Source: Gemmatimonadota bacterium (lineage in GTDB: Bacteria; Gemmatimonadota; Gemmatimonadetes; Gemmatimonadales; GWC2-71-9). Taken from it: a stretch of 47,217 nucleotides of DNA. Positions 113 through 43,361 of the stretch are shown piece after piece. Each line of letters opens with the position of its first letter. Positions within the stretch are counted from its first letter, which is position 1. The notes under the pieces were generated by a model. The model was given only the letters and a program-made list of their open reading frames with translations, was not told the DNA's origin and did not search any database. The stretch is from positions 1 to 47,217 of the forward strand of contig JADFPO010000014.1 in assembly GCA_022562295.1 (NCBI GenBank). The letters are read 5' to 3'. Made by a program: the position numbers and the translations under genes.

Positions 113-1258
113 ATGAACCCATCACCTGGCGGCCCCCTAACGGGGAAGGTCGCTGTCGTAGCCGGCGCGACGCGTGGAGCGGGGCGCGGGATCGCACGCG
201 GCCTCGGCGAGAAGGGTGCAACGGTGTACTGCACGGGCCGGAGCGTTCGCGGCAAGCCGGCGACCAAAGGCCGTCCCGAGACGATCGAGGAGACGGCCGA
301 ACTCGTCACCGACTGCGGCGGAGTCGGCATCCACGCGCGAGTGGATCACACCGACGAAGTTCAAGTCACCGATCTTTTTTCGCGCGTCAAAGAGGAGCAG
401 GGGCAGCTCGATATCCTCGTGAACGATGTGTGGGGTGGGGATGAGCTCACCGAGTGGGGAAAGCGGTTCTGGGAGGTGAGCATCGACAAAGGCCTGACGA
501 TGCTGGAGCGGGCGATTCACTCGCATATCATCACGAGCCGCCACGGCGCGCCTCTCATGGTCGAGCGCAACGAGGGTTTGATCGTGGAGATCACCGACGG
601 CGCCTCGGACCTCTACCGCGGAAACCTGTTCTACGATCTCGTCAAGACCACGGTGATGCGATTGGCGTACGACATGGCGCTCGAGCTTCGCCGTACCAAC
701 ATTACGGCCCTCGCCGTAACCCCCGGGTTTCTCCGGTCGGAGATGATGCTGGCGCACTTCGGAGTGACGGAAAAGAACTGGGAGGACGCCGTAGCAACGG
801 ACCGACACTTCGCCGAATCGGAAACACCGCTCTTTGTAGGACGTTGCGTGGCCGCGCTCGCGGCGGATCCCGACGTAGGGCGATTTGCCGGTGCGTCGCT
901 GGCGTCGTGGAATCTCGCCAAGGAATATGGGATTGACGATGCGGACGGTCGCCGTCCGGACTTCGGCACATATATGCGAGGACTGCTCAGCGAAGCGTTG
1001 GTGCGCGTCGCTCGGGCCGCCGGCCGGGGTTCGAAAACGGCGGGGACCGGCCATGGCGATGCGGTCGCCAAGGTGAGAAAAGCGGCCCACAAGGAATTTG
1101 GGAAGATCGGACTCGACTTCTTCCTGGATACGCCGTCGCGTGTGCTGTACGAGCACATCGCGGCGCTGGGGTCCGATCCCGATCCAGCGCGCGTAGCCGA
1201 CATCGTTGAGCAGGAGTTTACGTTCGACGCCACCCGGGCGGTGCCGCCGCTCGATTGA
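113..1258 (+). CDS. SDR-family short-chain dehydrogenase/reductase with a long C-terminal extension
   Basis: ORF 53..1258. Rossmann motif GKVAVVAGATRGAGRGIARGL and VNDVWGG. The track start at 53 is TTG. The first in-frame ATG is at 113, just before the Rossmann motif. Confidence 0.8.
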   Translation: MNPSPGGPLTGKVAVVAGATRGAGRGIARGLGEKGATVYCTGRSVRGKPATKGRPETIEETAELVTDCGGVGIHARVDHTDEVQVTDLFSRVKEEQGQLDILVNDVWGGDELTEWGKRFWEVSIDKGLTMLERAIHSHIITSRHGAPLMVERNEGLIVEITDGASDLYRGNLFYDLVKTTVMRLAYDMALELRRTNITALAVTPGFLRSEMMLAHFGVTEKNWEDAVATDRHFAESETPLFVGRCVAALAADPDVGRFAGASLASWNLAKEYGIDDADGRRPDFGTYMRGLLSEALVRVARAAGRGSKTAGTGHGDAVAKVRKAAHKEFGKIGLDFFLDTPSRVLYEHIAALGSDPDPARVADIVEQEFTFDATRAVPPLD

Positions 1259-14681: not shown

Positions 14682-15422
14682 TTACATCACCATGCCGCCG
14701 TCGACCACCACCACTTGCCCGGTCATATAGCTGGCGAGATCGGACGACAAAAACAACACGGCGTTCGCTACGTCTTCGGCGGCGCCGAGTCTACCGAGTG
14801 GTATCAGCTTCCGCAGGGTCTCCCGCGCGGCCTCGGGAAGTGCTCTCGTCATATCGGTGTCGATGAAACCGGGCGCAACGGCGTTCACGAGCACGTTGCG
14901 CGCCGCCAACTCCTTGGCCACGCTCTTCGTGAAACCGATGACGCCCGCTTTCGACGCAGAATAATTGGCCTGTCCGGCATTGCCCGTGATCCCGACTACG
15001 CTGGCGATGTTGACCACCCTACCGCCGCGACGCTTCATCATGCCCCGGGCCACTGCCTTCGTCATGTTGAACACGCCCTTGAGATTGACATCCAGAACGG
15101 CGCTCCAGGCCTCCTCCGTCATCCGAATCAGCAGACCGTCGCGTGTGATGCCGGCGTTGTTGACGAGCACGTCGATCGGACCGAGCTGTTCTTCAATCTG
15201 CGAAACAGCCGCGCCGACGTCGTCGGCATCGACCACGTTGGCCCGGACGGCGATCGCTCCACCTCCGATTTCGCGGGCGGTGGCCTCCAACTGCTCGGGA
15301 TCGACGACATCGACCAGAGCCACGCGAGCCCCTGCCCCGGCCAACCGGCTTGCAACCGCCTTGCCGATCCCTCGCGACCCACCCGTCACCAGAGCGACTT
15401 TGCCGCTCAAGTCGATGGTCAC
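14682..15422 (-). CDS. fabG: 3-oxoacyl-ACP reductase
   Basis: [31 protein letters not shown] start preceded by GAAGGAGGG. Sits in the fab operon. Confidence 0.9.
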
Positions 15423-21717: not shown

Positions 21718-22670
21718 TCACTGTCTCCGAAAATTGATGTTCCAGTCTCGCCCTCGAGCGCAGGCATACCCTCCGCCAAGTGCGCGATCACCGCGCGGCG
21801 CCCGCCCAGTTCGACGAACTTGATCGCTGCCTCTAACTTCGGCACCATGCTGCCTCTCCCCAACGACTCTGTACGCAACAAAGTATGCGCTTCCGACACG
21901 GTCATACGGCGAATGGGGCGCGCGTGTTCGGTCCCCCAGTCATGATGAACCGCGGCTACGTCCGTGAGGATTAGCAGGGTGTCGGCTCCCAAGCGAGCCC
22001 CGAGAATAGCCGCGGTACGGTCTTTGTCTACCACCGCATCCACACCCTCGAAGCCCACGCCTGGGTCGTCATACACTGGCGTGCCGCCACCTCCCGCAGC
22101 CACCACGATTTTTCCTTCATCCACCAACTGCTTGACCGCCTCGGCTTCGACGACATCAACGGGATTCGGGCTGGGCGCCAGCCTGCGCAGCCGTCCCGCT
22201 GCATCCTTCCCCACATGATCGCCGCGCGCACGCAAGGCGTCGGCGAGCGACTCGTCAATGGCCATGCCGATCGGCTTCGTCGGATCGTGCAGCGACGGGT
22301 CGTCACGGGCGACCAGCGTTTGTGTGATGACCGTGAGTACCTGCCGATCTACTCCCGCCTTCCGGAGAGCGTTCTGCAAGGACTGCTGAACCATGTACCC
22401 CATCCAGCCGGCCGTCCCTGCAACGAGAACGCCGAGCGGAAGGGGCTCCACCTGATCCATGGCGCACTCGTTTCGGCGTAGCGCGTTCCCCACCTGTGGT
22501 CCGTTCCCATGTACGATGGCGATCCGCCATCCGGCCTCGGCGAGCGTGACAACCACTTCCAGTGACTCGCGGGTGTGGCGAAACTGATCGTGAACCGTCA
22601 CGGTTTCGCCGACCGGAGCGAGCGCGTTACCGCCGAGCGCCACCACAATCGTATCGGACATCGGTTTCAC
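21714..22670 (-). CDS. arcC: carbamate kinase
   Basis: IVVALGGNAL, IVHGNGPQVGN and amino-acid-kinase fold motifs, 318 aa. Confidence 0.8.
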   Translation of the reverse strand: MKPMSDTIVVALGGNALAPVGETVTVHDQFRHTRESLEVVVTLAEAGWRIAIVHGNGPQVGNALRRNECAMDQVEPLPLGVLVAGTAGWMGYMVQQSLQNALRKAGVDRQVLTVITQTLVARDDPSLHDPTKPIGMAIDESLADALRARGDHVGKDAAGRLRRLAPSPNPVDVVEAEAVKQLVDEGKIVVAAGGGGTPVYDDPGVGFEGVDAVVDKDRTAAILGARLGADTLLILTDVAAVHHDWGTEHARPIRRMTVSEAHTLLRTESLGRGSMVPKLEAAIKFVELGGRRAVIAHLAEGMPALEGETGTSIFGDSE

Positions 22671-33475: not shown

Positions 33476-33672
33476 CCAGCTGATGTCGTCTGTAGTCGCG
33501 AGCTGCGCGCAGCCACCTAACTACGCAAGGCTCACAGCCCATGGATGAGACAATCCACTGGCCACCCTCCTGCCAGCGAGCAGAACCAATCCTTGAAGAA
33601 GATCGTCGTTGTCATGGCCCCCAGCTGACTCAAGTCCGAAGGAACCCAGGCCGATATTCCATCATGAAACCT

Positions 33673-33712
33673 GCGGGTAAACCCGCGGCTCGACCATCTG
33701 TCCGTAAGTGAC
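33673..33712 (+). repeat. degenerate forward copy of the two-hairpin repeat family (variant first hairpin GCGGG-taaa-CCCGC)
   Basis: gcgggtaaacccgcggctcgaccatctgtccgtaagtgac shares the CGGCTCG..ATCTGTC core with 41639-41684. Confidence 0.6.
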
Positions 33713-33723
33713 GTCTCGACAAC

Positions 33724-33769
33724 GTCGCTTCAGCGACAGAACAGCCGAGCCGCGACTATCAGTCGCGAG
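33724..33769 (-). repeat. full 46-nt two-hairpin repeat (reverse orientation), ending 9 nt before the gdh ATG
   Basis: gtcgcttcagcgacagaacagccgagccgcgactatcagtcgcgag. Palindromes GTCGCT-tc-AGCGAC (33724-33737) and CGCGACT-atc-AGTCGCG (33751-33767). Its reverse complement matches 41639-41684 with about 4 differences. Confidence 0.85.
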
Positions 33770-33778
33770 CGATCACCA

Positions 33779-35194
33779 ATGACCGAGCAGTTCGACTTCA
33801 GAGCACAGGTAAACCGTAGTTTCGACCGAGCGGCCGCGTTCACACGGCATCATCCCACGTTGCTGGCGCAGGTCCGCGAGTGCAACAGCGTCTACTACAT
33901 GAGCTTTCCCATCAAGCGGGACGACGGCACCATCGAGGTGATCGAGGCGTGGCGAGCGGAGCACAGCCACCACCGGCTACCCACGAAGGGAGGCATCCGG
34001 TTCAGCATGACCGTGAACCGTGACGAGGTCGCGGCGCTCGCCGCACTGATGACGTTCAAGTGTGCGTTAGTAGACGTCCCGTTCGGAGGGGCCAAGGGTG
34101 GCGTCAGGATCGCGCGCCACAAGTACTCGGAGGGCGAGCTCGAGCGCATCACGCGTCGCTACACCTTCGAGCTCAAGAGGAAAAATTTCATCGGTCCCGG
34201 ATGCGACGTCCCGGCGCCGGATTACGGCACCGGTCCGAGGGAAATGTCCTGGATCGTCGACACCTACCTGTCGCTCTCGGGTGGCGAGCTGAATGCGCTT
34301 GCTTGCGTTACGGGTAAGCCCGTCACACAGGGCGGAATTCGCGGTCGACTCGAGGCCACCGGCCGCGGCGTGTGCTATGGAATTCGCGAGTGCTGCAGCA
34401 TCGCGGAGGACATGAAGCGGCTGAAATTGAGCACGGGCGTCGAGGGCAAGCGATTGGTGGTTCAGGGCCTCGGCAACGTGGGGTATCACGCCGCCAAGTT
34501 TCTCGAGGAAGAAGGGGCGGTGTTGGTCGGCATCGCGGAATACGAGGGTGCCGTCTCTGCTCCGAACGGGCTGAAGCTGGAGGAGCTGGTCGCTCACAGA
34601 AAGGAAACCGGAACAATTCTCGACTTTCCCGGAGCGACCAACCTACCCAATTCCTCCGACGCGTTGGAGCTCGACTGCGACATTCTCATACCGGCCGCGC
34701 TAGAAAATCAGATTACCACGAAGAACGCATCGGCCATCAAGGCCAAGATCGTGGGCGAAGCCGCCAATGGCCCCACGACGGAAGATGCCGATGCGATTCT
34801 TCGCCAGCGCGGTGTGCTCATCCTCCCCGACATCTATCTCAACGCCGGCGGCGTCACGGTATCGTACTTCGAGTGGCTCAAGAATCTCTCGCACGTGCGG
34901 TTCGGCCGGCTGCAGAAGCGTTATGAAGAACGGGCGCACAAAGGGCTGTTGGACGCGCTGGCCAAGCTTCATGGGGATCAGCCTTCCGACCATGAAACGC
35001 CAGAGTTCGCCCGTGGCGCCGACGAGATCGACCTCGTCAATTCCGGGCTCGAAGAGACGATGGCCGTCGCCTATAGGGAAATCGTGGACCGGAAAACGCG
35101 GTTGGGAAACGACATCGACATGCGCACTGCCGCCATGGTCAACGCAATCGATAAGGTGGCGGTGACATACGAAGAGCTGGGGATTTTTCCGTAG
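33779..35194 (+). CDS. Glu/Leu/Phe/Val-family amino-acid dehydrogenase (glutamate dehydrogenase-like)
   Basis: KGGIRF, ALMTFKCALVDVPFGGAKGGV, VQGLGNVGYHAA, 471 aa. Confidence 0.85.
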   Translation: MTEQFDFRAQVNRSFDRAAAFTRHHPTLLAQVRECNSVYYMSFPIKRDDGTIEVIEAWRAEHSHHRLPTKGGIRFSMTVNRDEVAALAALMTFKCALVDVPFGGAKGGVRIARHKYSEGELERITRRYTFELKRKNFIGPGCDVPAPDYGTGPREMSWIVDTYLSLSGGELNALACVTGKPVTQGGIRGRLEATGRGVCYGIRECCSIAEDMKRLKLSTGVEGKRLVVQGLGNVGYHAAKFLEEEGAVLVGIAEYEGAVSAPNGLKLEELVAHRKETGTILDFPGATNLPNSSDALELDCDILIPAALENQITTKNASAIKAKIVGEAANGPTTEDADAILRQRGVLILPDIYLNAGGVTVSYFEWLKNLSHVRFGRLQKRYEERAHKGLLDALAKLHGDQPSDHETPEFARGADEIDLVNSGLEETMAVAYREIVDRKTRLGNDIDMRTAAMVNAIDKVAVTYEELGIFP

Positions 35195-35200
35195 CCGCAG

Positions 35201-35221
35201 AGTGGAAATTGGAGAGTGGAT
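35201..35221 (+). repeat. heptads AGTGGAA ATTGGAG AGTGGAT after the gdh stop
   Basis: Read directly. gdh TAG at 35192-35194. Inverted relative to 36529-36549. Confidence 0.8.
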
Positions 35222-35274
35222 TTATCCTGTAGTTGGTGCTCCCTGGTCTTCCCCCGGCTTGATGGACACGCAGT

Positions 35275-36153
35275 TTACGCAGCCCGCCGCGTTTGTGCGA
35301 GCTGAGCGGCGTACTCCACCGGTGTCCGATACCCGAGACTCGAATGCCGACGTTGCCGATTGTACCAGACCTCGATGTATTCAAACAGGTCGCGCGACGC
35401 TTCCCGGCGCGTTTGCCAGTCCGCCTCGGCGACCAATTCCCATTTCAGCGTGGCCATGAAACTCTCCACGACGGCGTTATCCCAACAGTTGCCCCGCCGA
35501 CTCATGCTGACCGCAATGCCCTGCGCCGCCAGGCGGTCGCGGTAGGTGCGACACGCGTACTGCACGCCCCGATCCGAATGGTGCAGCCCGCCCCCGCCAC
35601 CCTCGCGCTCCAGCGCCATGTCGAGCGCCGCCAGCGTGATGTCGTGCTGTAACGACGACCGCACCGCCCAGCCCACCACCTGCCGGTTGCCAACATCTAG
35701 AATCACCGCCAGATACAGCCACCCCTCCCGCGTGGGGAGGTACGTCAGATCCGCGGCCCATACCCGCTCGGCGCCCTGCCGGCCCACGGCAAACTGGCGA
35801 GCCAAGATATTGGGAGCCGGCGCATAGGCGTGGTCCGACTCCGTGGTCACCCGGAACCGGCGCCGTTTCTTGGCGCGCAGCCCGTCGGCCCGCATCAGCC
35901 GCTCCACCCGCTTCTTGCCACACCGCAGCCCCCGCGCCCGCAACTCGTGATATACCCGCGGGCTACCGTAGCGCCGCCGACTCTCCCGGTGAATCGTGCG
36001 AATCTCTACTCGAAGTCGCTGATCGTGTCGTGTCCGCGCGCTCGGGGCACGACGGTACGCCGCGTAGAACCCCGACCGACTCACCCCCAACACCCGACAC
36101 ATCATCGTCACCGGAAATCTGCCACGGTGCGACGCAATACACGCGTACTTCAC
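35275..36153 (-). CDS. IS3-family transposase OrfB (rve integrase core)
   Basis: WAADLTYLPT, HHSDRGVQY, GNCWDNAVVESF and YNRQRRHSSLGYRTP, typical of IS3 OrfB. In the -1 frame relative to orfA. Confidence 0.9.
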   Translation of the reverse strand: MKYACIASHRGRFPVTMMCRVLGVSRSGFYAAYRRAPSARTRHDQRLRVEIRTIHRESRRRYGSPRVYHELRARGLRCGKKRVERLMRADGLRAKKRRRFRVTTESDHAYAPAPNILARQFAVGRQGAERVWAADLTYLPTREGWLYLAVILDVGNRQVVGWAVRSSLQHDITLAALDMALEREGGGGGLHHSDRGVQYACRTYRDRLAAQGIAVSMSRRGNCWDNAVVESFMATLKWELVAEADWQTRREASRDLFEYIEVWYNRQRRHSSLGYRTPVEYAAQLAQTRRAA

Positions 36154-36449
36154 GGCGACTCCTGCGCGAAGAACACTGCCGCTTTTTTTAAGAAATCGCG
36201 CTCCTGCCTGACCCGTTCAAGCTCCCGACGCAGCTGCCGCGTCTCGTCCTCCGGCCCCGTCGCAGTGCCCTGGCCCGGAAACACCGTAGCCGGGGCCCGC
36301 TTCTCTACCTGCTGCTTCCACTTATGCAGCAAGCTCGGGGCAATCCCGAGATCACGCGCCACCTCCGCCAGCGAACGCTCCGACTCCACAGCCAGTTGGA
36401 CCGCCTCCAGCTTGAACTCCTTTGCATACTGCCGTCGCTGCTTGACCAT
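36150..36449 (-). CDS. IS3-family transposase OrfA (HTH)
   Basis: MVKQRRQYAKEFKLEAVQL...LGIAPSLLHKWKQQ. The start was moved to ATG 36449 because the track start 36515 lies outside the IS end. Confidence 0.85.
   Translation of the reverse strand: MVKQRRQYAKEFKLEAVQLAVESERSLAEVARDLGIAPSLLHKWKQQVEKRAPATVFPGQGTATGPEDETRQLRRELERVRQERDFLKKAAVFFAQESP
36183..36189 (-). other. A7 slippery heptamer (A AAA AAA G) for programmed -1 frameshifting orfA->orfB
   Basis: Minus strand reads ...ttc TTA AAA AAA GCG.... A hand translation after a -1 slip runs KKSGSVLRAGVAVKYACIAS straight into the OrfB frame. Confidence 0.75.
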
Positions 36450-36514
36450 GAACACCTCCCCACGGATTGTAGGACATCTCCTAACCATGTGTCCACCAAA
36501 CCGGGGGAGGCCCA

Positions 36515-36556
36515 CCCAATCTCAAATTCCCACTCGCCAATTTCCAATCTCCAATC
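36515..36556 (-). repeat. six phased heptads (minus sense AGATTGG type) after the M20 peptidase stop
   Basis: Plus strand reads cccaatc tcaaatt cccactc gccaatt tccaatc tccaatc. Peptidase TAG at 36566-36568. Confidence 0.85.
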
Positions 36557-36565
36557 TATTGGCCG

Positions 36566-37891
36566 CTAATCGATCCGATCCGCCTCGATCAGCCGGTACA
36601 TGAGCAACGCGGCACGCTTCGTCTGCATCGCCAGCGTGGGGAGATCGATCCACTCGTTCACCGTGTGATCGTTTCCACCACCCGGACCGAGCCCGTCGAT
36701 TGCCATATCCACCAGGCCCGCAACGAACGAGACGTCGGCCGCGCCCGCGTTGCGGGGATCCACCGCCGTTACCGGACCAAACCCCAGATCTCGGCTCGCG
36801 TCATCGAACCGTGCGAGCAGCCGGCGGTTGCCGTCAGTCGGCGCCAGCGGTGGGTAACCGTCATCGAACGTGAGTACCGCCGAAGTCCCCGGAAGGTTCT
36901 GCCCCGCAATGAAGGTCATGCGCGCGCGCGCCGCCGCGAGTTGCTCGAGCGACAAGGTCCGTAGGTCGCCGGTGACGACGGCGTGCCCGGCAACGACGTT
37001 GCTCTTTCCAAACGCCGTGCCGCGGCTCTGGAACGTGTCGTAATCGACGTCCGTGCCGGCCAGCATGACGCCAGGGTTGAAGGTGAGATAAGGTTCACCC
37101 GCCAGGCTCTGATAGAACTGCCCGAGGATCCGAGAGGCCTCATACACCGCCCCGGCACCAACCTCGGGCTGAAACAGCTGCGACGAGTGGGCTGGCGTGC
37201 CCGTCACGTCGAGACGCCAGCCGGTGGAACCCCGACGCGCGACCACTGCCGTGCGCGGGTCGCTGTCGCCGTTCTCGAAGGCGATGGCGATGTCCGCGTC
37301 TACGGCAGCTTGGATGAGTGCCTCCCGCGCAAGATCGAGCGGACGTCCGCTCCGCTCCTCGTCGCCGGTCATCACGATCGTGATGGTCATGCCGTCGAGC
37401 ACACCGGCGGCATCGAGTGCCTTCAGTGCATGGACGATGACGACGTCCCCACCCTTCATGTCGACCACACCGGGACCGCCCGCCGTCGAATCGCCCCTCC
37501 GCTCGAACCGTTGGAACGGGCTGTCGAGTTCGAACACCGTGTCGAGATGGCCGATGAGGAGAAGATGGGGTCTGGTTCCCCCCCCCTCCCCCGTGCGCCG
37601 GGCGAGCAGGTGCCCCGCACGCTCGAACGACGCGCCGTCCACCCACTCGGTGGCAAACCCGAGCGCGTCGAACTCGGCGCTCAGTACGCGGCCAACCTCC
37701 CTCACGCCCGCGAAGTTCATCGTGCCACTGTTGATGTTGACAACCCGTTCGAGCAACGCCACGGCCTCGGCGACGTGGCTGTCGACTGCTTCGATGATGC
37801 GTCGCTCAACAGCGGGAAGGTCCTGTTGCACGGACGACACCGCGCCGAGCACGGGAGTGGGCAGCAACAGGATTGCCGCAATAGTCTTCAC
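36566..37891 (-). CDS. M20-family metallopeptidase (carboxypeptidase G2-like), secreted
   Basis: LLLIGHLDTVF, GPGVVDMKGG and TGDEE motifs. GTG at 37891 gives the signal peptide (M)KTIAAILLLPTPVLGAVSS. The longer track ORF would translate the heptad tract. Confidence 0.8.
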   Translation of the reverse strand: MKTIAAILLLPTPVLGAVSSVQQDLPAVERRIIEAVDSHVAEAVALLERVVNINSGTMNFAGVREVGRVLSAEFDALGFATEWVDGASFERAGHLLARRTGEGGGTRPHLLLIGHLDTVFELDSPFQRFERRGDSTAGGPGVVDMKGGDVVIVHALKALDAAGVLDGMTITIVMTGDEERSGRPLDLAREALIQAAVDADIAIAFENGDSDPRTAVVARRGSTGWRLDVTGTPAHSSQLFQPEVGAGAVYEASRILGQFYQSLAGEPYLTFNPGVMLAGTDVDYDTFQSRGTAFGKSNVVAGHAVVTGDLRTLSLEQLAAARARMTFIAGQNLPGTSAVLTFDDGYPPLAPTDGNRRLLARFDDASRDLGFGPVTAVDPRNAGAADVSFVAGLVDMAIDGLGPGGGNDHTVNEWIDLPTLAMQTKRAALLMYRLIEADRID

Positions 37892-37898
37892 ACGGCCT

Positions 37899-37947
37899 CC
37901 GATTTCCAATCTCCACTTTTCATTCTGCAATCTCCAATCTCCAATCT
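37899..37947 (-). repeat. seven phased heptads (minus sense AGATTGG type) filling the gap after the Gfo/Idh/MocA stop
   Basis: Plus strand reads ccgattt ccaatct ccacttt tcattct gcaatct ccaatct ccaatct. Stop TAG at 37948-37950. Confidence 0.9.
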
Positions 37948-39186
37948 CTACCGCCATTCCCCCTTTGCCACCGCCGGCACGAACGCATCGAGATCCGCCG
38001 GTGGAAAGTCGATGGTCCTCCCCTGCTCCGCGCTCATATAGGCCGTCATGAGAATCTGCATCACCTCGACACCGTCGTCGAACGTCAACGCGGGCTGTTG
38101 GTCGTTCAGAAACGCCTGCGTGAAGTGACGGTTCTCGGCTTCGTACCCGTATGCGGTCCACTCGTCGGGAATGACCGGCATGAGGCCCACCTCGGCATTC
38201 TGTTTCTCGACCAGGTCTTCACCGGCTTCGCCGGACACTTCACGACTAAAGAACAACTTGAGCCCGCTCTCCAACGTGTTCCACGACATCGAGTATTCCG
38301 GCCCGAGCAGCTCGGCGGAGAGCCGCAATCCAGCCCCGACAAAACACCACGACGTTGTGACCTCACCTAAGAGCGGTGTACCGTCTTCGGTAACGTACTC
38401 GATCGTCGCGCTCGCAAAATCCTCCGCGGGACGCTTTCCGTAATCGACTTCGTCACCCATCATCTGAGCGAGCTTCTCCACGTACTCCGGGCGTGTCCAC
38501 TTCAGACTCGCGATGCGGGCCGTCACTCTCACCGGCCGGATCGAGGAGCGAGGAGCGCCGGGTTCGGTCAGCAGATGGCGCACGACCTCGACGGAGTGAC
38601 ACATCATGTCGGTCAACACACCGCCACCCTGCAGGTCCGCGCGCCAGAACCACGGCATATGCGGACCGCTGTGTTCTTCCGCCGCACGAGCCAGGTATGG
38701 ACGTCCGGTCAACGCGGCGCCTCGCGCCCAAATCAGATCGCGTCCCCGCACGACGTGCGGCGTGAAGAGTTGGTTCTCCAAGTACCCGTGGCTCAGATCG
38801 GCACTCTTGACGAGTTCGGTTACCGTGCGCGCCTCCCCCACCGTTCGCGCAAGCGGCTTCTCGCACGCAATGCCCTTCAGCGACCCCCTCCCCGCCTTGA
38901 TGGCGTCCACGACCTCCTCGACGTTCTCGATTCGCGCGTGATTGGGTCCGCACAACCAGATCGCATCGATGCTCGGGTCATCGACCATGTCGGCGATGGA
39001 CGAATATGGCTTGGCTTCCCCGACATTGAGGGTGCGTGCAAGATCGGCAGCGTCGGCAGCGTTGGCAGCGTTGGGACTGAAGATCCCCCGCACGTCCGCG
39101 TCTCGCACGCCGATTAGGGATTGGATGTGAAATCGAGCGTTGAATCCGCTGCCGATGAAGCCGATGCCGAGTCGTGATCGGGGCAT
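37948..39186 (-). CDS. Gfo/Idh/MocA-family oxidoreductase (cytoplasmic type)
   Basis: LGIGFIGSGFNARFH Rossmann N-terminus, CEKPLA motif, 412 aa. Confidence 0.85.
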   Translation of the reverse strand: MPRSRLGIGFIGSGFNARFHIQSLIGVRDADVRGIFSPNAANAADAADLARTLNVGEAKPYSSIADMVDDPSIDAIWLCGPNHARIENVEEVVDAIKAGRGSLKGIACEKPLARTVGEARTVTELVKSADLSHGYLENQLFTPHVVRGRDLIWARGAALTGRPYLARAAEEHSGPHMPWFWRADLQGGGVLTDMMCHSVEVVRHLLTEPGAPRSSIRPVRVTARIASLKWTRPEYVEKLAQMMGDEVDYGKRPAEDFASATIEYVTEDGTPLLGEVTTSWCFVGAGLRLSAELLGPEYSMSWNTLESGLKLFFSREVSGEAGEDLVEKQNAEVGLMPVIPDEWTAYGYEAENRHFTQAFLNDQQPALTFDDGVEVMQILMTAYMSAEQGRTIDFPPADLDAFVPAVAKGEWR

Positions 39187-39195
39187 GATTTCTCT

Positions 39196-39265
39196 CTGTT
39201 GGCTATCAGCTATCAGCTATCAGCTGTGGTAACGGTTAGATCACTACTCACTACTCACTACTCAC
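39196..39265 (-). repeat. ten consecutive in-phase heptads occupying almost the whole intergenic gap
   Basis: Plus strand reads ctgttgg ctatcag x3 ctgtggt aacggtt agatcac tactcac x3. The upstream gene's stop (39258-39260) lies inside the last units. Confidence 0.92.
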
Positions 39266-39869
39266 GTTCCCCATAGCTCACCCCCAACTTCCGAAGTTGC
39301 TCCTCCGGACACCCATCCCACTCAGTTGCCACGTTGCCGAGATACTGTAGGTCCTCTACACCCATTCGGCTGGACCAAAAACCGCTCGCCGTCAAATCGC
39401 GAAAGGAGGTGAAGAACGCGACACCGTGGCTCAGCTCGGGCCGCGCTCGCTCCGGCCACGCCAGCTCGTCCAAAAGTTCGGTACGCTGCGCCTCGGTGCA
39501 CTCCACGAAGGTGCTCCCGAACCGCCGCTTGCACTGCACGTCGATCCACGCGAGACCACCCCTCATGGCTGTCTGCCGACCCTGTTGATCGGCCACAATG
39601 AAGTCCATGAACTCCGGCACACCGGCGTCGGTGGCGCTGCCGGACCGTTCGTCGCGCGGCAAGATGAGATTGACGAGGATTCGAACCGTCTCGTACTCGT
39701 GCGCTGTAAAGAATTGGGGCTCGAACTGGGCACCTGCACCCGCCGCCTTGCGTGTGGCGAGCACCGCACCGCGGGCGCGTTCCACCTCTTGTGGCGTCCA
39801 ATCGAACGCCATCGCCAGCGGGGCGGCGGCGAGGAGTCTCACCATCTCACGCCGCTGCATGTTGCGCAT
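39258..39869 (-). CDS. gluconate 2-dehydrogenase subunit 3-family small subunit with a Tat signal
   Basis: MQRREMVRLLAAAPLAMA twin-arginine leader. ~200 aa, immediately downstream of and overlapping (1 nt, TAATG) the GMC flavoprotein gene. Confidence 0.75.
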   Translation of the reverse strand: MRNMQRREMVRLLAAAPLAMAFDWTPQEVERARGAVLATRKAAGAGAQFEPQFFTAHEYETVRILVNLILPRDERSGSATDAGVPEFMDFIVADQQGRQTAMRGGLAWIDVQCKRRFGSTFVECTEAQRTELLDELAWPERARPELSHGVAFFTSFRDLTASGFWSSRMGVEDLQYLGNVATEWDGCPEEQLRKLGVSYGERE

Positions 39870-41572
39870 TAGAGGTTCCCTCCGTTTCGCTCGGCGGCGA
39901 TGAACTCACTGGTGCGCATCGCGAGCGCCAGGATCGTCCAGGTCGGGTTCTTGTCGGACTGCGACACGAAGGGTCCGCCGTCGGCAACGAACAGGTTCTT
40001 CACATCGTGCGCCTGGCAATTGCTATTGAGCACCGACGTAGCAGTACTGTTACCCATGCGAGTAACCCCCACCTCGTGAATGATGCGTCCGCCGGTCAGA
40101 ATCCCGTATCCACTCTCTCGTGTGGGCATGGGAGAAAACACTTCGCCTCCCATCTCGGCGATGATGGCGCGAAAAGTCTCCTGCATGTGTTTGACCTGGT
40201 TGTACTCGTGTTCGCTCCACTTGAAGTGAAAACGCAGCACCGGAATACCCCACTGATCCACGGTGCTGGGATCGATCTCGCAGTAACTGTCCTCGTTGGG
40301 AATCATCTCACCACGACCCGAAAAACCCACCGTCGCTCCGTAGTAGCGCCGGTAATCGTCTTTGAGTGACTTCCCGTAACCACCTCCCGTGGGATATCGA
40401 TGGATTCCGCCCATGAAGCCGTAACTCGGCATCCCGCGGCCGCCCCATGGTTCGATGTGGTAGCCGCGCGGGAAATCGAGCGTCGAGTTGTCCAACCACC
40501 ACGGCGTGTAAATGTGCATTCCCCCGGCGCCGTCTTCGTTGTGCGGAACGCCATCCATCAACTTGGGAATGAACCCGGCGACGTCGGAGCCGGTACTGTC
40601 GGTCAAATACTTGCCGACCGTCCCGCTCGAGTTGGCCAGGCCATCCGGAAACAGCGAAGACGTCGAGTTCAGCAACAGGCGCGCCGACTCGCAGGCGCTG
40701 GCCGCCAGCACTACGATGCGCGCACGTACGATTTCCTCACGTCCGGTCTTCTTGTCGATGTAGATCACCCCGCCAGCGAGCCCGTTTCGGTCGATGGTCA
40801 CTTCACGCACCATCGCATCCGTCACGAGTCTCAGCCTGCCGGTGTTCATGGCCGGGGGGATGAGGACGTTGGTAGACGAAAAGTTGGCATGGATACTGCA
40901 CCCGCGACCGCATTGACCACAGTAGTGGCATGCTGGCCTGCCGTTCAACGGTTGCGTGAGAACCGACCGCCTGGCCGGAATACAGGTAACCCCCAATTCG
41001 TCGCACGCGTCCTTGATGAGCAGCTCGTAACAACGGGGCTTTGGAGGAGGCTGGAAGAAACCGTCCGGCGCGTTGCGGAGCCCCTCGTTGGTACCGTGGA
41101 TTCCCACCATTCGATCTAGGATGTCGTAGTACGGCGCGATGTCGTCATAGCCGATGGGCCAATCGTCGCCGAGACCGTCTCGGCTGCGCGCCGTGAAATC
41201 GTCCGGCCCGTAGCGCAGCGAGATGCGCCCCCAGTGGTTCGTGCGTCCACCCAGCTGCCTGACGCGGAACCAATCGAAGCTATCTCCGGGCGCCCTCGTA
41301 TACGGCTCCCCGGGGAGCGACCAACCGCCGAGCCCCGCGTGGAACTCACCGAAGTTCCGCTCGGGCGTCGAGGCCCCCCGGCGTGGTGACTCGTATGCCC
41401 ACCTGAACATGGCCGAGTCCGTCGCGTTGTCCCACATGCGACCGGCTTCAAGCAGGATGACCTCGGCGCCGGCTTCGGTGAGCTGCTTGGCGGCCATGCC
41501 GCCGCCCGCGCCGGAGCCCACGATGCATACGTCGTACTGTTGCTGGCGTTTGAGGAAAAACATGAATTCCAC
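39869..41572 (-). CDS. GMC-family FAD-dependent oxidoreductase (large subunit)
   Basis: YDVCIVGSGAGGGMAAKQLTEAGAEVILLE FAD-binding motif. C-terminal GMC pattern ...HEVGVTRMG...NLFVADGGPF. Confidence 0.88.
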   Translation of the reverse strand: MEFMFFLKRQQQYDVCIVGSGAGGGMAAKQLTEAGAEVILLEAGRMWDNATDSAMFRWAYESPRRGASTPERNFGEFHAGLGGWSLPGEPYTRAPGDSFDWFRVRQLGGRTNHWGRISLRYGPDDFTARSRDGLGDDWPIGYDDIAPYYDILDRMVGIHGTNEGLRNAPDGFFQPPPKPRCYELLIKDACDELGVTCIPARRSVLTQPLNGRPACHYCGQCGRGCSIHANFSSTNVLIPPAMNTGRLRLVTDAMVREVTIDRNGLAGGVIYIDKKTGREEIVRARIVVLAASACESARLLLNSTSSLFPDGLANSSGTVGKYLTDSTGSDVAGFIPKLMDGVPHNEDGAGGMHIYTPWWLDNSTLDFPRGYHIEPWGGRGMPSYGFMGGIHRYPTGGGYGKSLKDDYRRYYGATVGFSGRGEMIPNEDSYCEIDPSTVDQWGIPVLRFHFKWSEHEYNQVKHMQETFRAIIAEMGGEVFSPMPTRESGYGILTGGRIIHEVGVTRMGNSTATSVLNSNCQAHDVKNLFVADGGPFVSQSDKNPTWTILALAMRTSEFIAAERNGGNL

Positions 41573-41638
41573 GCGTTCCCGGTTCGGGTCGTAATCTGGT
41601 GCAGGAACGGCGTTGGCGCGAGTCGAGGGTCGAGGTTT

Positions 41639-41684
41639 CTCGCGACTGAGAGTCGCGGCTCGGCTATCTGTCGCTGAAAGCGAC
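41639..41684 (+). repeat. full 46-nt two-hairpin repeat, 66 nt upstream of the GMC start (reverse orientation relative to that gene's strand)
   Basis: ctcgcgactgagagtcgcggctcggctatctgtcgctgaaagcgac. Hairpins CGCGACT-gag-AGTCGCG (41641-41657) and GTCGC-tgaaa-GCGAC (41670-41684). Confidence 0.85.
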
Positions 41685-41907
41685 GGCTGAGCATAACCCT
41701 GCCTCGCGCAGCCCCTTCAGCCATCAGTATCTTAACGCCTCCAGCATACGCGGAACGGCCCTTCCGTATTGTCTTGCTAGAATCCGTGGAAACCCGACCC
41801 CAGCAACCAGCCAAAACGACCACGGTCGTAGTCTTCCTCTGGCGTCCCACGCATTGAGCCGCTGGTAATTACGCAGACTGGGAACCACAAGGACGGCTCA
41901 AACGCCC

Positions 41908-42233
41908 ATGTCCCGGCCCTACAAAGCTGCGATCGCTTCCAGTGGGTTGACTATTTATGACCCCATCGAGATGGGACACCCCACTCTTTGGATTCCGTCG
42001 CGTGATCTACAAGAGCTTCTCAAGAACTCCCTTGCTGGAACATCGCTCGCCGGTCCCCAATCAGGACGCGCTCCAAGGTTGTAAAGACACTCGTAGCTCA
42101 AGCCCTTGGCTATCCAATACGCTCGAGCTTCCGGAAAACACAACCCCGTTTCCCGGGGCAAAACTTCGACACCTATGTCCAGAAATCCAATTATCTGCAG
42201 ATCTGGAACGAAGCCGCCTGTCACGACGGCTAA
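41908..42233 (+). pseudogene. frameshifted, 3'-truncated fragment of a conserved-looking gene (possibly nuclease/restriction-endonuclease-like) with lower GC
   Basis: Frame 1 (41908-42084) reads MSRPYKAAIASSGLTIYDPIEMGHPTLWIPSRDLQELLKNSLAGTSLAG...stop. The sense continues in another frame (42048-42233) as RRSPIRTRSKVVKTLVAQALGYPIRSSFRKTQPRFPGQNFDTYVQKSNYLQIWNEAACHDG-stop. Hand count is 150 G+C in 280 nt for 41951-42230. Confidence 0.5.
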
Positions 42234-42236
42234 AGC

Positions 42237-42267
42237 CGCGGCTCGGCTATCTGTCGCTGAAAGCGAC
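42237..42267 (+). repeat. 31-nt partial copy (second hairpin module) of the two-hairpin repeat, followed by a T5 run
   Basis: cgcggctcggctatctgtcgctgaaagcgac is identical to 41654-41684. Followed by ctttttg. Confidence 0.85.
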
Positions 42268-42301
42268 CTTTTTGTTCAGTCGCCTTGGTGACGGTCGGAG
42301 C

Positions 42302-42325
42302 GCCGAGCCGTGGGTTTACCCGTGG
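42302..42325 (-). repeat. reverse-orientation variant module (CACGGGTAAACCCACGGCTCGGC)
   Basis: The reverse complement of gccgagccgtgggtttacccgtgg resembles 33672-33692 (ctgcgggtaaacccgcggctcg). Confidence 0.55.
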
Positions 42326-42362
42326 TGATCCCGTGCGGGGCCCCCGTTACGACAGTTGAAGC

Positions 42363-42393
42363 CGCCCCTCGGCTATCTGTCGCTGAAAGCGAC
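42363..42393 (+). repeat. 31-nt partial copy of the two-hairpin repeat
   Basis: cgcccctcggctatctgtcgctgaaagcgac. Three mismatches to 42237-42267, all in the first 6 nt. Confidence 0.85.
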
Positions 42394-42422
42394 GACGAAG
42401 CTGAGCGTGCGTCGATGGAAGT

Positions 42423-42440
42423 CCCGCCCTGAAGGGCGGG
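42423..42440. terminator. GC hairpin CCCGCCC-tgaa-GGGCGGG downstream of the isomerase gene
   Basis: Perfect 7-bp stem with a GNRA-like 4-nt loop, about 70 nt after the stop at 42510 (minus). No U-tract on either strand. Confidence 0.4.
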
Positions 42441-42453
42441 CTCCCCCGCAACA

Positions 42454-42509
42454 TCAACACCCGACACCCGACACCTGACACCTATCCCCCATCCCCTATC
42501 CCCCATCCC
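42454..42509 (-). repeat. eight phased heptads of two families (minus sense GGGATRG x4 then GTGTCRG x3-4) abutting the isomerase stop
   Basis: Plus strand reads tcaacac ccgacac ccgacac ctgacac ctatccc ccatccc ctatccc ccatccc. Stop TAG at 42510-42512. Confidence 0.92.
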
Positions 42510-43361
42510 CTAAAACCTCAATCCCTCGAGATACTCATAACTCACCCTTATCGACTCAAACTGCTCCGCCGGCCGATCGTGTTCCACGAAAAAGTGTCGG
42601 ATCCCTGCGCTCTCGCGCTCGGCGAAGATCGCCGCGAAGTCGATGCTTCCCTGCCCTACATCCACCATGGCACCGTTCGGCAAGCCATCCATGTCCTTCA
42701 CGTGCACCGACGGAAACCGTCCCGGATACCGCGAAAAATATTCCAACGGATCACGGCCACCCCGGATGATCCAAAAGAGGTCCATCTGTAGCAACACGTG
42801 CTGGCTATCGCTTTCGGCAATCAGCACGTCGTAGGGGACTTGGCCCTCGAGAAGCGCGAATTCCGCAGCGTGATTGTGATAGCCGAACGAGATTCCCGCC
42901 TCTCGCGCCCGCTCCCCGGCTCTATTGAACACGTCCGCCACTCGCTGGTACCCCGCAATGGACTCGGTCACCGACCGGGGCAGACCGGGGCAGATCAGGT
43001 AGTCGTGCCCGACCACGTTGGCGGTCTCGAGGATGGGTCCCCAGTCGTCACCCAGTACCTCATAGGAGACATGCGCAGAAGGCGCGCGCAACCCTACGTC
43101 ATCGAGCACCGCGCGTACGGCCGCAGGGGGCCGGCCGAAATAGCCGGCAAATTCGACCTCGGCGTACCCGATTGCGGCTACACGCCGCAGCGTCCCCTCG
43201 AAGTCATCCCCCATGGCCTGGCGCACGGTGTAGAGTTGGACGCCAATCCGATCCAGGGTTCCCGCGGCCCTGGTCGTAGCACCCCGAGCGTCACAGGCTA
43301 GACCCGCTGCCCCGAGGGCACCGGCGCTCAACGTCTTGAGGAACGTGCGACGATCCGACAT
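42510..43361 (-). CDS. sugar phosphate isomerase/epimerase (xylose-isomerase-like TIM barrel) with a Tat signal
   Basis: MSDRRTFLKTLSAGALGAAGLA twin-arginine leader. IGVQLYTV, GYAEVEF and FGYHNH patterns of the AP-endonuclease-2/XI-like TIM family. Confidence 0.8.
   Translation of the reverse strand: MSDRRTFLKTLSAGALGAAGLACDARGATTRAAGTLDRIGVQLYTVRQAMGDDFEGTLRRVAAIGYAEVEFAGYFGRPPAAVRAVLDDVGLRAPSAHVSYEVLGDDWGPILETANVVGHDYLICPGLPRSVTESIAGYQRVADVFNRAGERAREAGISFGYHNHAAEFALLEGQVPYDVLIAESDSQHVLLQMDLFWIIRGGRDPLEYFSRYPGRFPSVHVKDMDGLPNGAMVDVGQGSIDFAAIFAERESAGIRHFFVEHDRPAEQFESIRVSYEYLEGLRF

Follow-up and report, generated by a model that had tools for sequence, protein, structure and literature searches.

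A two-hairpin, REP/REPIN-like repeat family linked to an IS200-like Y1 transposase gene in Gemmatimonadota

What are the short inverted repeats found between genes on contig JADFPO010000014.1 of a Gemmatimonadota bacterium (GenBank assembly GCA_022562295.1), and how did they spread? The stretch of DNA analysed, called here the window, comprises positions 1 to 47,217 of this contig. An initial annotation, made from its letters alone, described in it a two-hairpin family resembling repetitive extragenic palindromic (REP) sequences and bacterial interspersed mosaic elements (BIME). Systems made of REPs and a REP-associated tyrosine transposase (RAYT) are the best-known short mobile DNA persisting inside bacterial genomes. 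To our knowledge, they have been described almost exclusively in Proteobacteria, where the enzymes are class-2 RAYTs and the hairpins have a GTAG foot; among the papers searched, none linked REP or RAYT to Gemmatimonadota. The checks proposed in that annotation all favour the REP/BIME-like reading. The units are, in our judgement, quite probably copies of a non-autonomous DNA element of the type of REPs and of their doublets (REPINs), spread by a transposase of the HUH/Y1 kind. The repeat family, its copy number, its extragenic placement, its structural conservation, its doublets, its linkage to a transposase gene and the purifying selection on that gene are the established part of this reading.

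The study genome (G000) is a 3.79 Mb draft of 210 contigs, with 62% G+C and a completeness of about 95%. Repeat units were searched for with a covariance model, R1, comprising 11 base pairs, and matches in the genome were counted at E≤0.01; a profile search was also run on the genome contigs. The layout of the unit was read from an alignment of 30 distinct genomic copies. Over 48-53 nt it consists of hairpin 1, a CTCGGC segment, a linker of 2-8 nt, CTG and hairpin 2. The unit starts with n-T-n-A and continues with hairpin 1, made of C-[C/G]-A-C-NNN, the loop T-N-A-A and N'N'N'-G-C-[G/C]-G, within which an A.C mismatch is conserved. The single-stranded CTCGGC between the hairpins is invariant and reads GGCTCGGC in most copies. 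Hairpin 2 directly follows CTG and is made of GTCG-N, a loop TNAA or similar, and N'-CGAC. Two subtypes differ by their linker, of 2-5 nt in type A and 7-8 nt in type B.

R1 placed six units in the window, four of which form two tail-to-tail doublets (33667-33771 and 42220-42329). The left half of doublet 1 is the unit 33667-33714 on the plus strand (48.6 bits with R1, E 2.8e-10, and DNA fold), with CTGCGGG-TAAA-CCCGCGG as hairpin 1 and a decayed hairpin 2 (GTCCGTAAGTGAC). Its right half, 33722-33771 on the minus strand (50.2 bits), carries the hairpin 1 variant CGCGACT-GAT-AGTCGCG and the hairpin 2 GTCGC-TGAA-GCGAC, and stops 8 nt short of the start codon of gdh (33779). A single unit, 41637-41686 on the plus strand (53.7 bits; fold of -14.4 kcal/mol, z -3.4), lies 65 nt upstream of the start of a GMC-oxidoreductase gene located on the minus strand. 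Doublet 2 associates the type A unit 42220-42269 on the plus strand (66.9 bits, E 2.4e-15) with the type B unit 42277-42329 on the minus strand (36.5 bits), the latter decayed, with mismatches in both stems. The sixth unit, 42346-42395 on the plus strand (58.4 bits), is of type A with a weakened hairpin 1. Folded as single-stranded DNA, doublet 1 (33663-33775) reached -28 kcal/mol (z -4.0) and doublet 2 (42216-42333) formed one long hairpin of -31.5 kcal/mol (z -4.4). With up to 2 mismatches allowed, the window contains three occurrences of the 28-nt core GGCTCGGCTATCTGTCGCTGAAAGCGAC, and 100 dinucleotide-preserving shuffles yielded none. When the whole study genome was searched, the exact core was found in the window only.

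The repeat sequences quoted by the initial annotation are all present at their positions, and the copies that it compared, at 41639 and 33724, do show the roughly four differences it reported: one base in the loop of hairpin 1, one substitution and one inserted base in the linker, and a hairpin-2 loop shorter by one base. The annotation counted at least five copies of a 46-nt unit; the family stands, with a tally of six and a longer unit. Two stretches taken for half units (42237-42267 and 42363-42393) proved to be full two-hairpin units with another hairpin 1 (ACGACGGC-TAAA-GCCGC and ACGACAGT-TGAA-GCCGC, respectively), and the variant assigned to 42302-42325 on the minus strand belongs to the full but decayed unit 42277-42329. 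The inverted pairing had been noticed correctly and described as head-to-head; the orientation has to be reversed, the second hairpins facing each other (tail-to-tail) at 7-10 nt. The 41639 copy, which served as type unit, belongs to a minority class with hairpin 1 CGCGACT-GAG-AGTCGCG.

In the study genome, 41 matches to R1 were counted, at about 28 loci, and up to 55 copies in relatives of the same genus, so that the copies expected elsewhere in the genome do exist. None of the 41 units overlaps a gene call by more than 10 nt, the calls being rough and covering about 78% of the genome. Both neighbours were called at 19 loci, corresponding to 7 convergent, 9 tandem and 3 divergent gene pairs. 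Fourteen of the 41 units are no more than 400 nt away from a contig end, where 4% would be expected (p ~1e-9). The assembly is thus interrupted by the repeats, so that 41 is a minimum. Eight tail-to-tail inverted doublets were found in this genome, with a spacing of 7-13 nt and mostly composed of one A and one B unit, and several singletons trail a remnant of their partner's hairpin 2. Most copies are, or were, tail-to-tail inverted doublets folding into one long hairpin, in a REPIN-like manner.

The annotation had also read the preserved stems as a sign of selection on structure, to be verified by covariation. Two sets of units were used: 143 units aligned to R1, from the repeat loci of the study genome and 14 relatives, and 68 units located near transposase genes of more distant genomes. 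In the first set, 95.2% of the cells form a standard pair, compared with 81.9% in shuffles and 22-70% in slid controls, the percentage being inflated by the fitting of the alignments to R1, which favours pairing. The slid controls and the double changes constitute the stronger structural evidence. Changes on both sides were counted in 147 cells, compared with 45 in shuffles and 4-14 in slid controls, and were distributed over 8 of the 11 pairs. For instance, in hairpin 1, C-G is replaced by G-C at both outer pairs, and G-C by A-T and C-G by G-C in the inner ones; in hairpin 2, the top pair changes from C-G to G-C. In the 68-unit set, compensatory changes affect every one of the 11 pairs. Both stems are thus backed by compensatory changes.

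Such changes support RNA stems equally well. The units might then be structured RNA elements (terminators, mRNA-stabilising 3' hairpins or a small RNA) kept by the host and spread by recombination, their link to a Y1 transposase being secondary. The intergenic location of all copies, the position of 16 of the 19 classifiable loci between convergent or tandem genes, and the T-run following one copy can be put forward for this explanation. It accounts poorly for units that occur in both orientations, mostly as inverted doublets, with no preferred transcript orientation, and for some copies that immediately precede a start codon or separate divergent genes. The class of intrinsic terminators was considered and rejected, since a terminator scan retrieved sites at no higher frequency than in shuffles and, of the 6 window units, a single one has a T-tail. 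Rfam gave no match in the window at the gathering score and none on the units of five repeat-rich loci even at E≤1, which agrees with the annotation, where no RNA family had been recognised. The conserved tight linkage of the units to a gene for a single-stranded DNA transposase would also stay unexplained, and we consider an RNA origin very improbable.

That gene lies outside the window. The annotation had proposed to look for a RAYT, of IS200/IS605-like type, and a search with PF01797 (Y1_Tnp) detected three Y1 genes in the study genome. One of them, on contig C178 (C178:294-692, minus strand), encodes a protein of 133 aa. It is flanked on one side by an A/B doublet, 194-242(+) and 252-304(-), and on the other by a B unit, 780-833(-); a further doublet is found on the same contig at 10-111. 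The end of the gene, AAT TAC CAC GGG TAA, is itself the hairpin 1 of a B unit, the stop codon being the TAA of the loop. A 131-aa open reading frame stands beside the gene, no long one of the size of tnpB does, and the other side is the contig end. The proposal was thus borne out as regards a Y1 gene flanked by the same repeat, and not as regards a canonical class-2 RAYT.

The C178 protein has the HUH motif HVH, in the form THVH (DHVH in some relatives), the W motif WA and the tyrosine motif YIRNQPAHH, and the pattern Y---Q--HH is present in all three Y1 paralogues of the study genome. It scores 80.6 bits with PF01797 and passes the IS200/IS605 model NF033573 of NCBIfam (70.4 bits for a cut-off of 55). 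Its core, catalytic tyrosine motif included, aligns with IS608 TnpA (E 5e-9), and its closest solved structures are the IS608 and ISDra2 TnpA proteins; the structure of the Escherichia coli RAYT was absent from its PDB matches at E≤1. Judged by these sequence features, the enzyme is best described as IS200-like, of class 1 and of subclass-1.2 type, and not as a canonical class-2 RAYT. A ratio of nonsynonymous to synonymous substitution rates of 0.17 between the genes of G000 and its relative G002 indicates purifying selection on the transposase gene.

The association of gene and repeat is not restricted to one genome. Orthologues with 46-84% identity and R1 units within about 100 nt were detected in at least 14 other genomes or loci (G002, G023, G011, G060, G207, G172, G070, G161, G152, G199, G107, G212, a second G002 paralogue and one named metagenome-assembled genome). 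The usual order is unit(+), gene, unit(-), that is, inverted flanking units in most genomes. In several orthologues the C-terminal tail varies and consists of translated REP sequence (VASAT...PSR), the frame running into the flanking repeat: VASAT is encoded by GTCGCTTCAGCGAC and PSR by CCGAGCC, so that hairpin 2 and the GCCGAGCC core are translated (among loci L019, L031, L118-L122 and L128-L130). The distribution was surveyed in 201 genomes of the phylum, the copy counts per genome being lower bounds taken among the best 29 scored candidates. R1 matches were found in 43 of them, all belonging to the taxonomic family of the study genome, and the repeat was also found in one genus of a sister family. 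It is present in 18 of the 23 genomes with an orthologue (E≤1e-30) and in 25 of the 178 without (Fisher p 5e-10, uncorrected for phylogeny).

The similarity of the enzyme to IS200/IS605 proteins raises another explanation. The gene could belong to an ordinary selfish insertion sequence (IS) of IS200/IS605 type, a transient parasite moving horizontally, the units being its end hairpins and gene-less derivatives comparable to miniature inverted-repeat or palindrome-associated transposable elements (MITE, PATE). Besides the NF033573 score and the closeness to the solved TnpA structures, the gene-adjacent units of G000, G001 and G002 lie on the strand of the gene on both sides, in direct orientation like the ends of IS200, and fairly close paralogues exist in some genomes (three in G060 and five in G152). 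The gene also has 86% DNA identity between G000 and G002 for about 66-75%, or no detectable similarity, in the other DNA compared, which hints at horizontal exchange of the transposase gene within the genus. Several points speak for the REP/REPIN-type reading instead. The C178 gene is single-copy in G000, with two other Y1 paralogues only 34-37% identical, whereas active IS200 copies are near-identical, and gene-less units exceed the gene by at least 41 to 1. The flanking units are mostly inverted, which is the pattern of REPtrons and not of IS200, the neighbouring open reading frame is far from tnpB in size, and the family extends over many genera of one taxonomic family. An ordinary IS is therefore an unlikely explanation.

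Genome G001 could not be retained as an independent genome for the gene: its transposase contig is 99% identical to contigs C178 and C85 of G000, for about 75% in core genes. Over its transposase unit, this contig (G001:C205, L017/L030, JADFIT010000168.1) matches G000 at 99% identity, its flank is 99.4% identical over 995 nt to the different G000 contig C85, and the context of the transposase unit differs. The contig would be either mis-binned or very recently transferred. Among database homologues of the enzyme (P0001-P0120), most are found on contigs of 0.5-2.5 kb, which fits flanking repeats that break metagenome assemblies; their source names read 'IS200/IS605 family transposase' or 'REP element-mobilizing transposase RayT'. 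Head-to-tail arrays of units in the same orientation were also encountered, five units with a period of about 153 nt beside the transposase gene in G161 (C4:472800-473615, L122) and six with a period of 65 nt in G020 (C34:115838-116211, L085/L009), where no transposase orthologue was detectable.

The two other Y1 genes of the study genome also have repeats at their sides. The gene on contig C96 is bracketed by two 118-nt elements with 96% identity (C96:14226-14341 and 14901-15018, L003/L029), each being a tail-to-tail doublet with four hairpins and the layout hairpin-GGCTCGGC-linker-hairpin. This second repeat family occupies about nine loci in the genome. The gene on contig C41 has a CCCCGGGC-loop-GCCYGGGG hairpin on both sides (C41:22113-22140 and ~22585-22610, L002), the downstream one starting right after the stop codon, with a few more copies elsewhere in the genome. 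As the flanks of the C96, C41 and C178 genes differ, each Y1 paralogue has its own repeat, a situation known for RAYT/REP pairs (PMC6006769). A hairpin of the window, 42423-42443, resembled the second family and was rejected as a copy of it, the profile of that family giving no match.

How does this system compare with the known ones? With the REP, BIME and REPIN populations and RAYT REPtrons of Enterobacteria, Pseudomonas and Stenotrophomonas (Nunvar 2010; PMC3116915; Ton-Hoang 2012; PMC3479197), it shares short, strictly extragenic hairpin repeats of two subtypes, assembled into inverted doublets that each fold into a long hairpin, single units with the look of decayed doublets, a HUH/Y1 gene present in one copy between repeats of its family, and a repeat family for each Y1 paralogue. 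It differs by two hairpins set around the single-stranded GGCTCGGC, by an enzyme with the class-1 Y---Q motif in place of the class-2 Y---NP of RAYTs, and by signs of horizontal exchange within the genus. With IS200/IS605 elements (IS608, ISDra2), it shares the closest sequences, hairpins near the gene ends, no visible target duplication and, in this genus, adjacent units in direct orientation. It departs from them by a whole two-hairpin unit on each flank, in addition to the gene copy number, the neighbouring frame, the inverted flanks and the excess of gene-less units discussed above. Several near-identical copies of a whole element were not seen in the study genome, which has one copy, the other Y1 genes having different flanks.

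Among the Y1 classes surveyed by Quentin, Siguier, Chandler and Fichant (2018, PMC6006769), subclass 1.2 is characterised by Y---Q--HH (consensus YIKNQKEHH), the HuH motif DH[IV]H, the W motif WQ, a median length of 148 aa and a mean paralogue identity of 36%. Table 1 of that survey gives it as 'REP: no', in Cyanobacteria and Bacteroidetes. The C178 enzyme agrees with it by its tyrosine motif, its 133 aa, its low copy number, its 34-37% identical paralogues and a behaviour that is not typical of an IS, and differs by its Gemmatimonadota host, its dispersed partner repeat and the THVH and WA motifs. Non-GTAG structured repeats, which can be numerous, also flank Y1 genes of soil phyla, in class 3 (Planctomycetes and Acidobacteria; Quentin 2018) and in the TIRtrons of Acidobacteria, whose tyrosine transposases are associated with terminal inverted repeats (TIRYT; PMC3733652); class 3 and TIRtrons have been suggested to stand midway between IS elements and REPtrons (Quentin 2018, PMC6006769; Di Nocera 2013, PMC3733652). 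We rejected both as assignments: class 3 has a Y----Q motif, a 155-aa core and a CnGA foot, TIRYTs stand in class 2.1, the tyrosine motif is mismatched, and neither signature fits the protein or the repeat. The CGTC-tagged REPs (Di Nocera 2013) were considered because the reverse strand of hairpin 2 starts with CGTCG. They were discarded as well, the known ones having stems of 8-9 bp with A/T pairs first and a CCA tail, and the present ones G+C-rich stems of 5-6 bp and no CCA.

Several observations weigh against a REP/REPIN-type element, to which the bias of the fitted alignments has to be added. The units begin with nT-N-A-C, and their alignment shows neither GTAG nor GTGG as a conserved element, so that the GT[AG]G foot of classical REPs is missing. 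The copy number is in the tens, below the hundreds typical of classical REP families, and the C178 protein fails the RAYT model NF047646 (28.5 bits for a cut-off of 80). The 25 genomes of the phylum sample that have the repeat without a detectable orthologue include G004, a complete genome with 5 copies, G020 (13 copies) and G058 (17 copies). The genus relatives G003 and G006 are also in this situation, their genomes being fragmented drafts. Finally, relatives with about 75% nucleotide identity are too diverged to define empty sites base by base. In sum, the system works like REP/RAYT and lies outside the classical families, as neither the GT[AG]G foot nor the RAYT model is matched. It is placed on a continuum between IS200 and REPtrons, nearer to REPtrons.

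The action of TnpA on IS200/IS605 ends has been shown, and that of RAYTs on REPs and REPINs is thought to occur. By analogy, the units would be recognised as single-stranded DNA hairpins, then cut and rejoined by the C178 HUH/Y1 tyrosine transposase, the GGCTCGGC/CTG spacer possibly acting as a determinant of recognition or cleavage. In this way the enzyme would copy units and doublets, or move them, to intergenic sites. A bolder proposal, on which our judgement is evenly divided, is that a subclass 1.2 branch drives a true REP/REPIN-like population in Gemmatimonadota. This would be a second, independently evolved lineage of replicators made of an enzyme and a hairpin, with a bipartite substrate (two TNAA-loop hairpins around GGCTCGGC) and each paralogue co-evolved with its own repeat family.

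The system offers a clean, testable case in an uncultured soil phylum, with a partner enzyme from a subclass surveyed in 2018 as devoid of repeats and a two-hairpin repeat of a design different from classical REPs. It is suggestive of more than one origin of REP-like systems, or of a continuum between them and IS200. It also supplies defined substrates and an enzyme for biochemistry on the reading of hairpins by Y1 proteins, and accounts for assembly breaks and for some borders of strain-specific DNA in these metagenome-assembled genomes.

Such borders are visible in the window. The gap between the GMC-oxidoreductase gene and an iolE-like gene measures 938 nt here and of the order of 50 nt (about 20-75 nt) in four genus relatives. 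It contains four REP units and the frameshifted, truncated remnant of a restriction-endonuclease gene (41957-42230, plus strand), detected by tblastn. Plasmid genes of Shewanella, Lactobacillus, Acinetobacter and Thioclava, two of which carry the annotation 'restriction endonuclease', match 85-96% of the remnant at 44-54% identity; Pfam and PDB sequence searches with it gave no match. Its homology ends exactly at the 5' edge of the unit at 42220. A second segment of 4.5 kb (~33500-37950) is absent from the genus relatives G001, G003, G005 and G007, and G008 has a different insert of 3.8 kb at this place. The segment encodes gdh (glutamate dehydrogenase), an IS3-type transposase (rve, 35275-36153) and an M20 peptidase, and has doublet 33667-33771 at its left edge. 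The units therefore mark borders of strain-specific DNA, and these positions fit mobile or recombinogenic elements.

This location at borders can also be put forward for another explanation, unrelated to transposition, in which a protein of the host (a nucleoid protein, gyrase, or a recombinase of Xer or integron type) would bind or recombine the units, and the invariant GGCTCGGC and CTGTCG segments do resemble a sequence-specific site. The stems covary, so that structure is kept rather than the sequence of a duplex. Only the gene of the Y1 transposase is consistently linked to the units, with neither an integrase nor an Xer gene associated with them, and sites of this kind are the least credible of the explanations considered.

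A last repeat class was noticed next to the units. Tandem heptanucleotide arrays, made of GACACCC and then of CATCCCC/TATCCCC units, occupy positions 42457-42512 of the window. Arrays related to them match about 30 other places of the study genome, and a strict scan found at least 120 period-7 arrays genome-wide. A link with these arrays was considered as a mechanism for the repeats and rejected, only 7 of the 41 units lying within 100 nt of a strict period-7 array. The heptanucleotide arrays are abundant, lie at gene ends and form a class of their own, whose positions coincide only loosely with those of the REP units.

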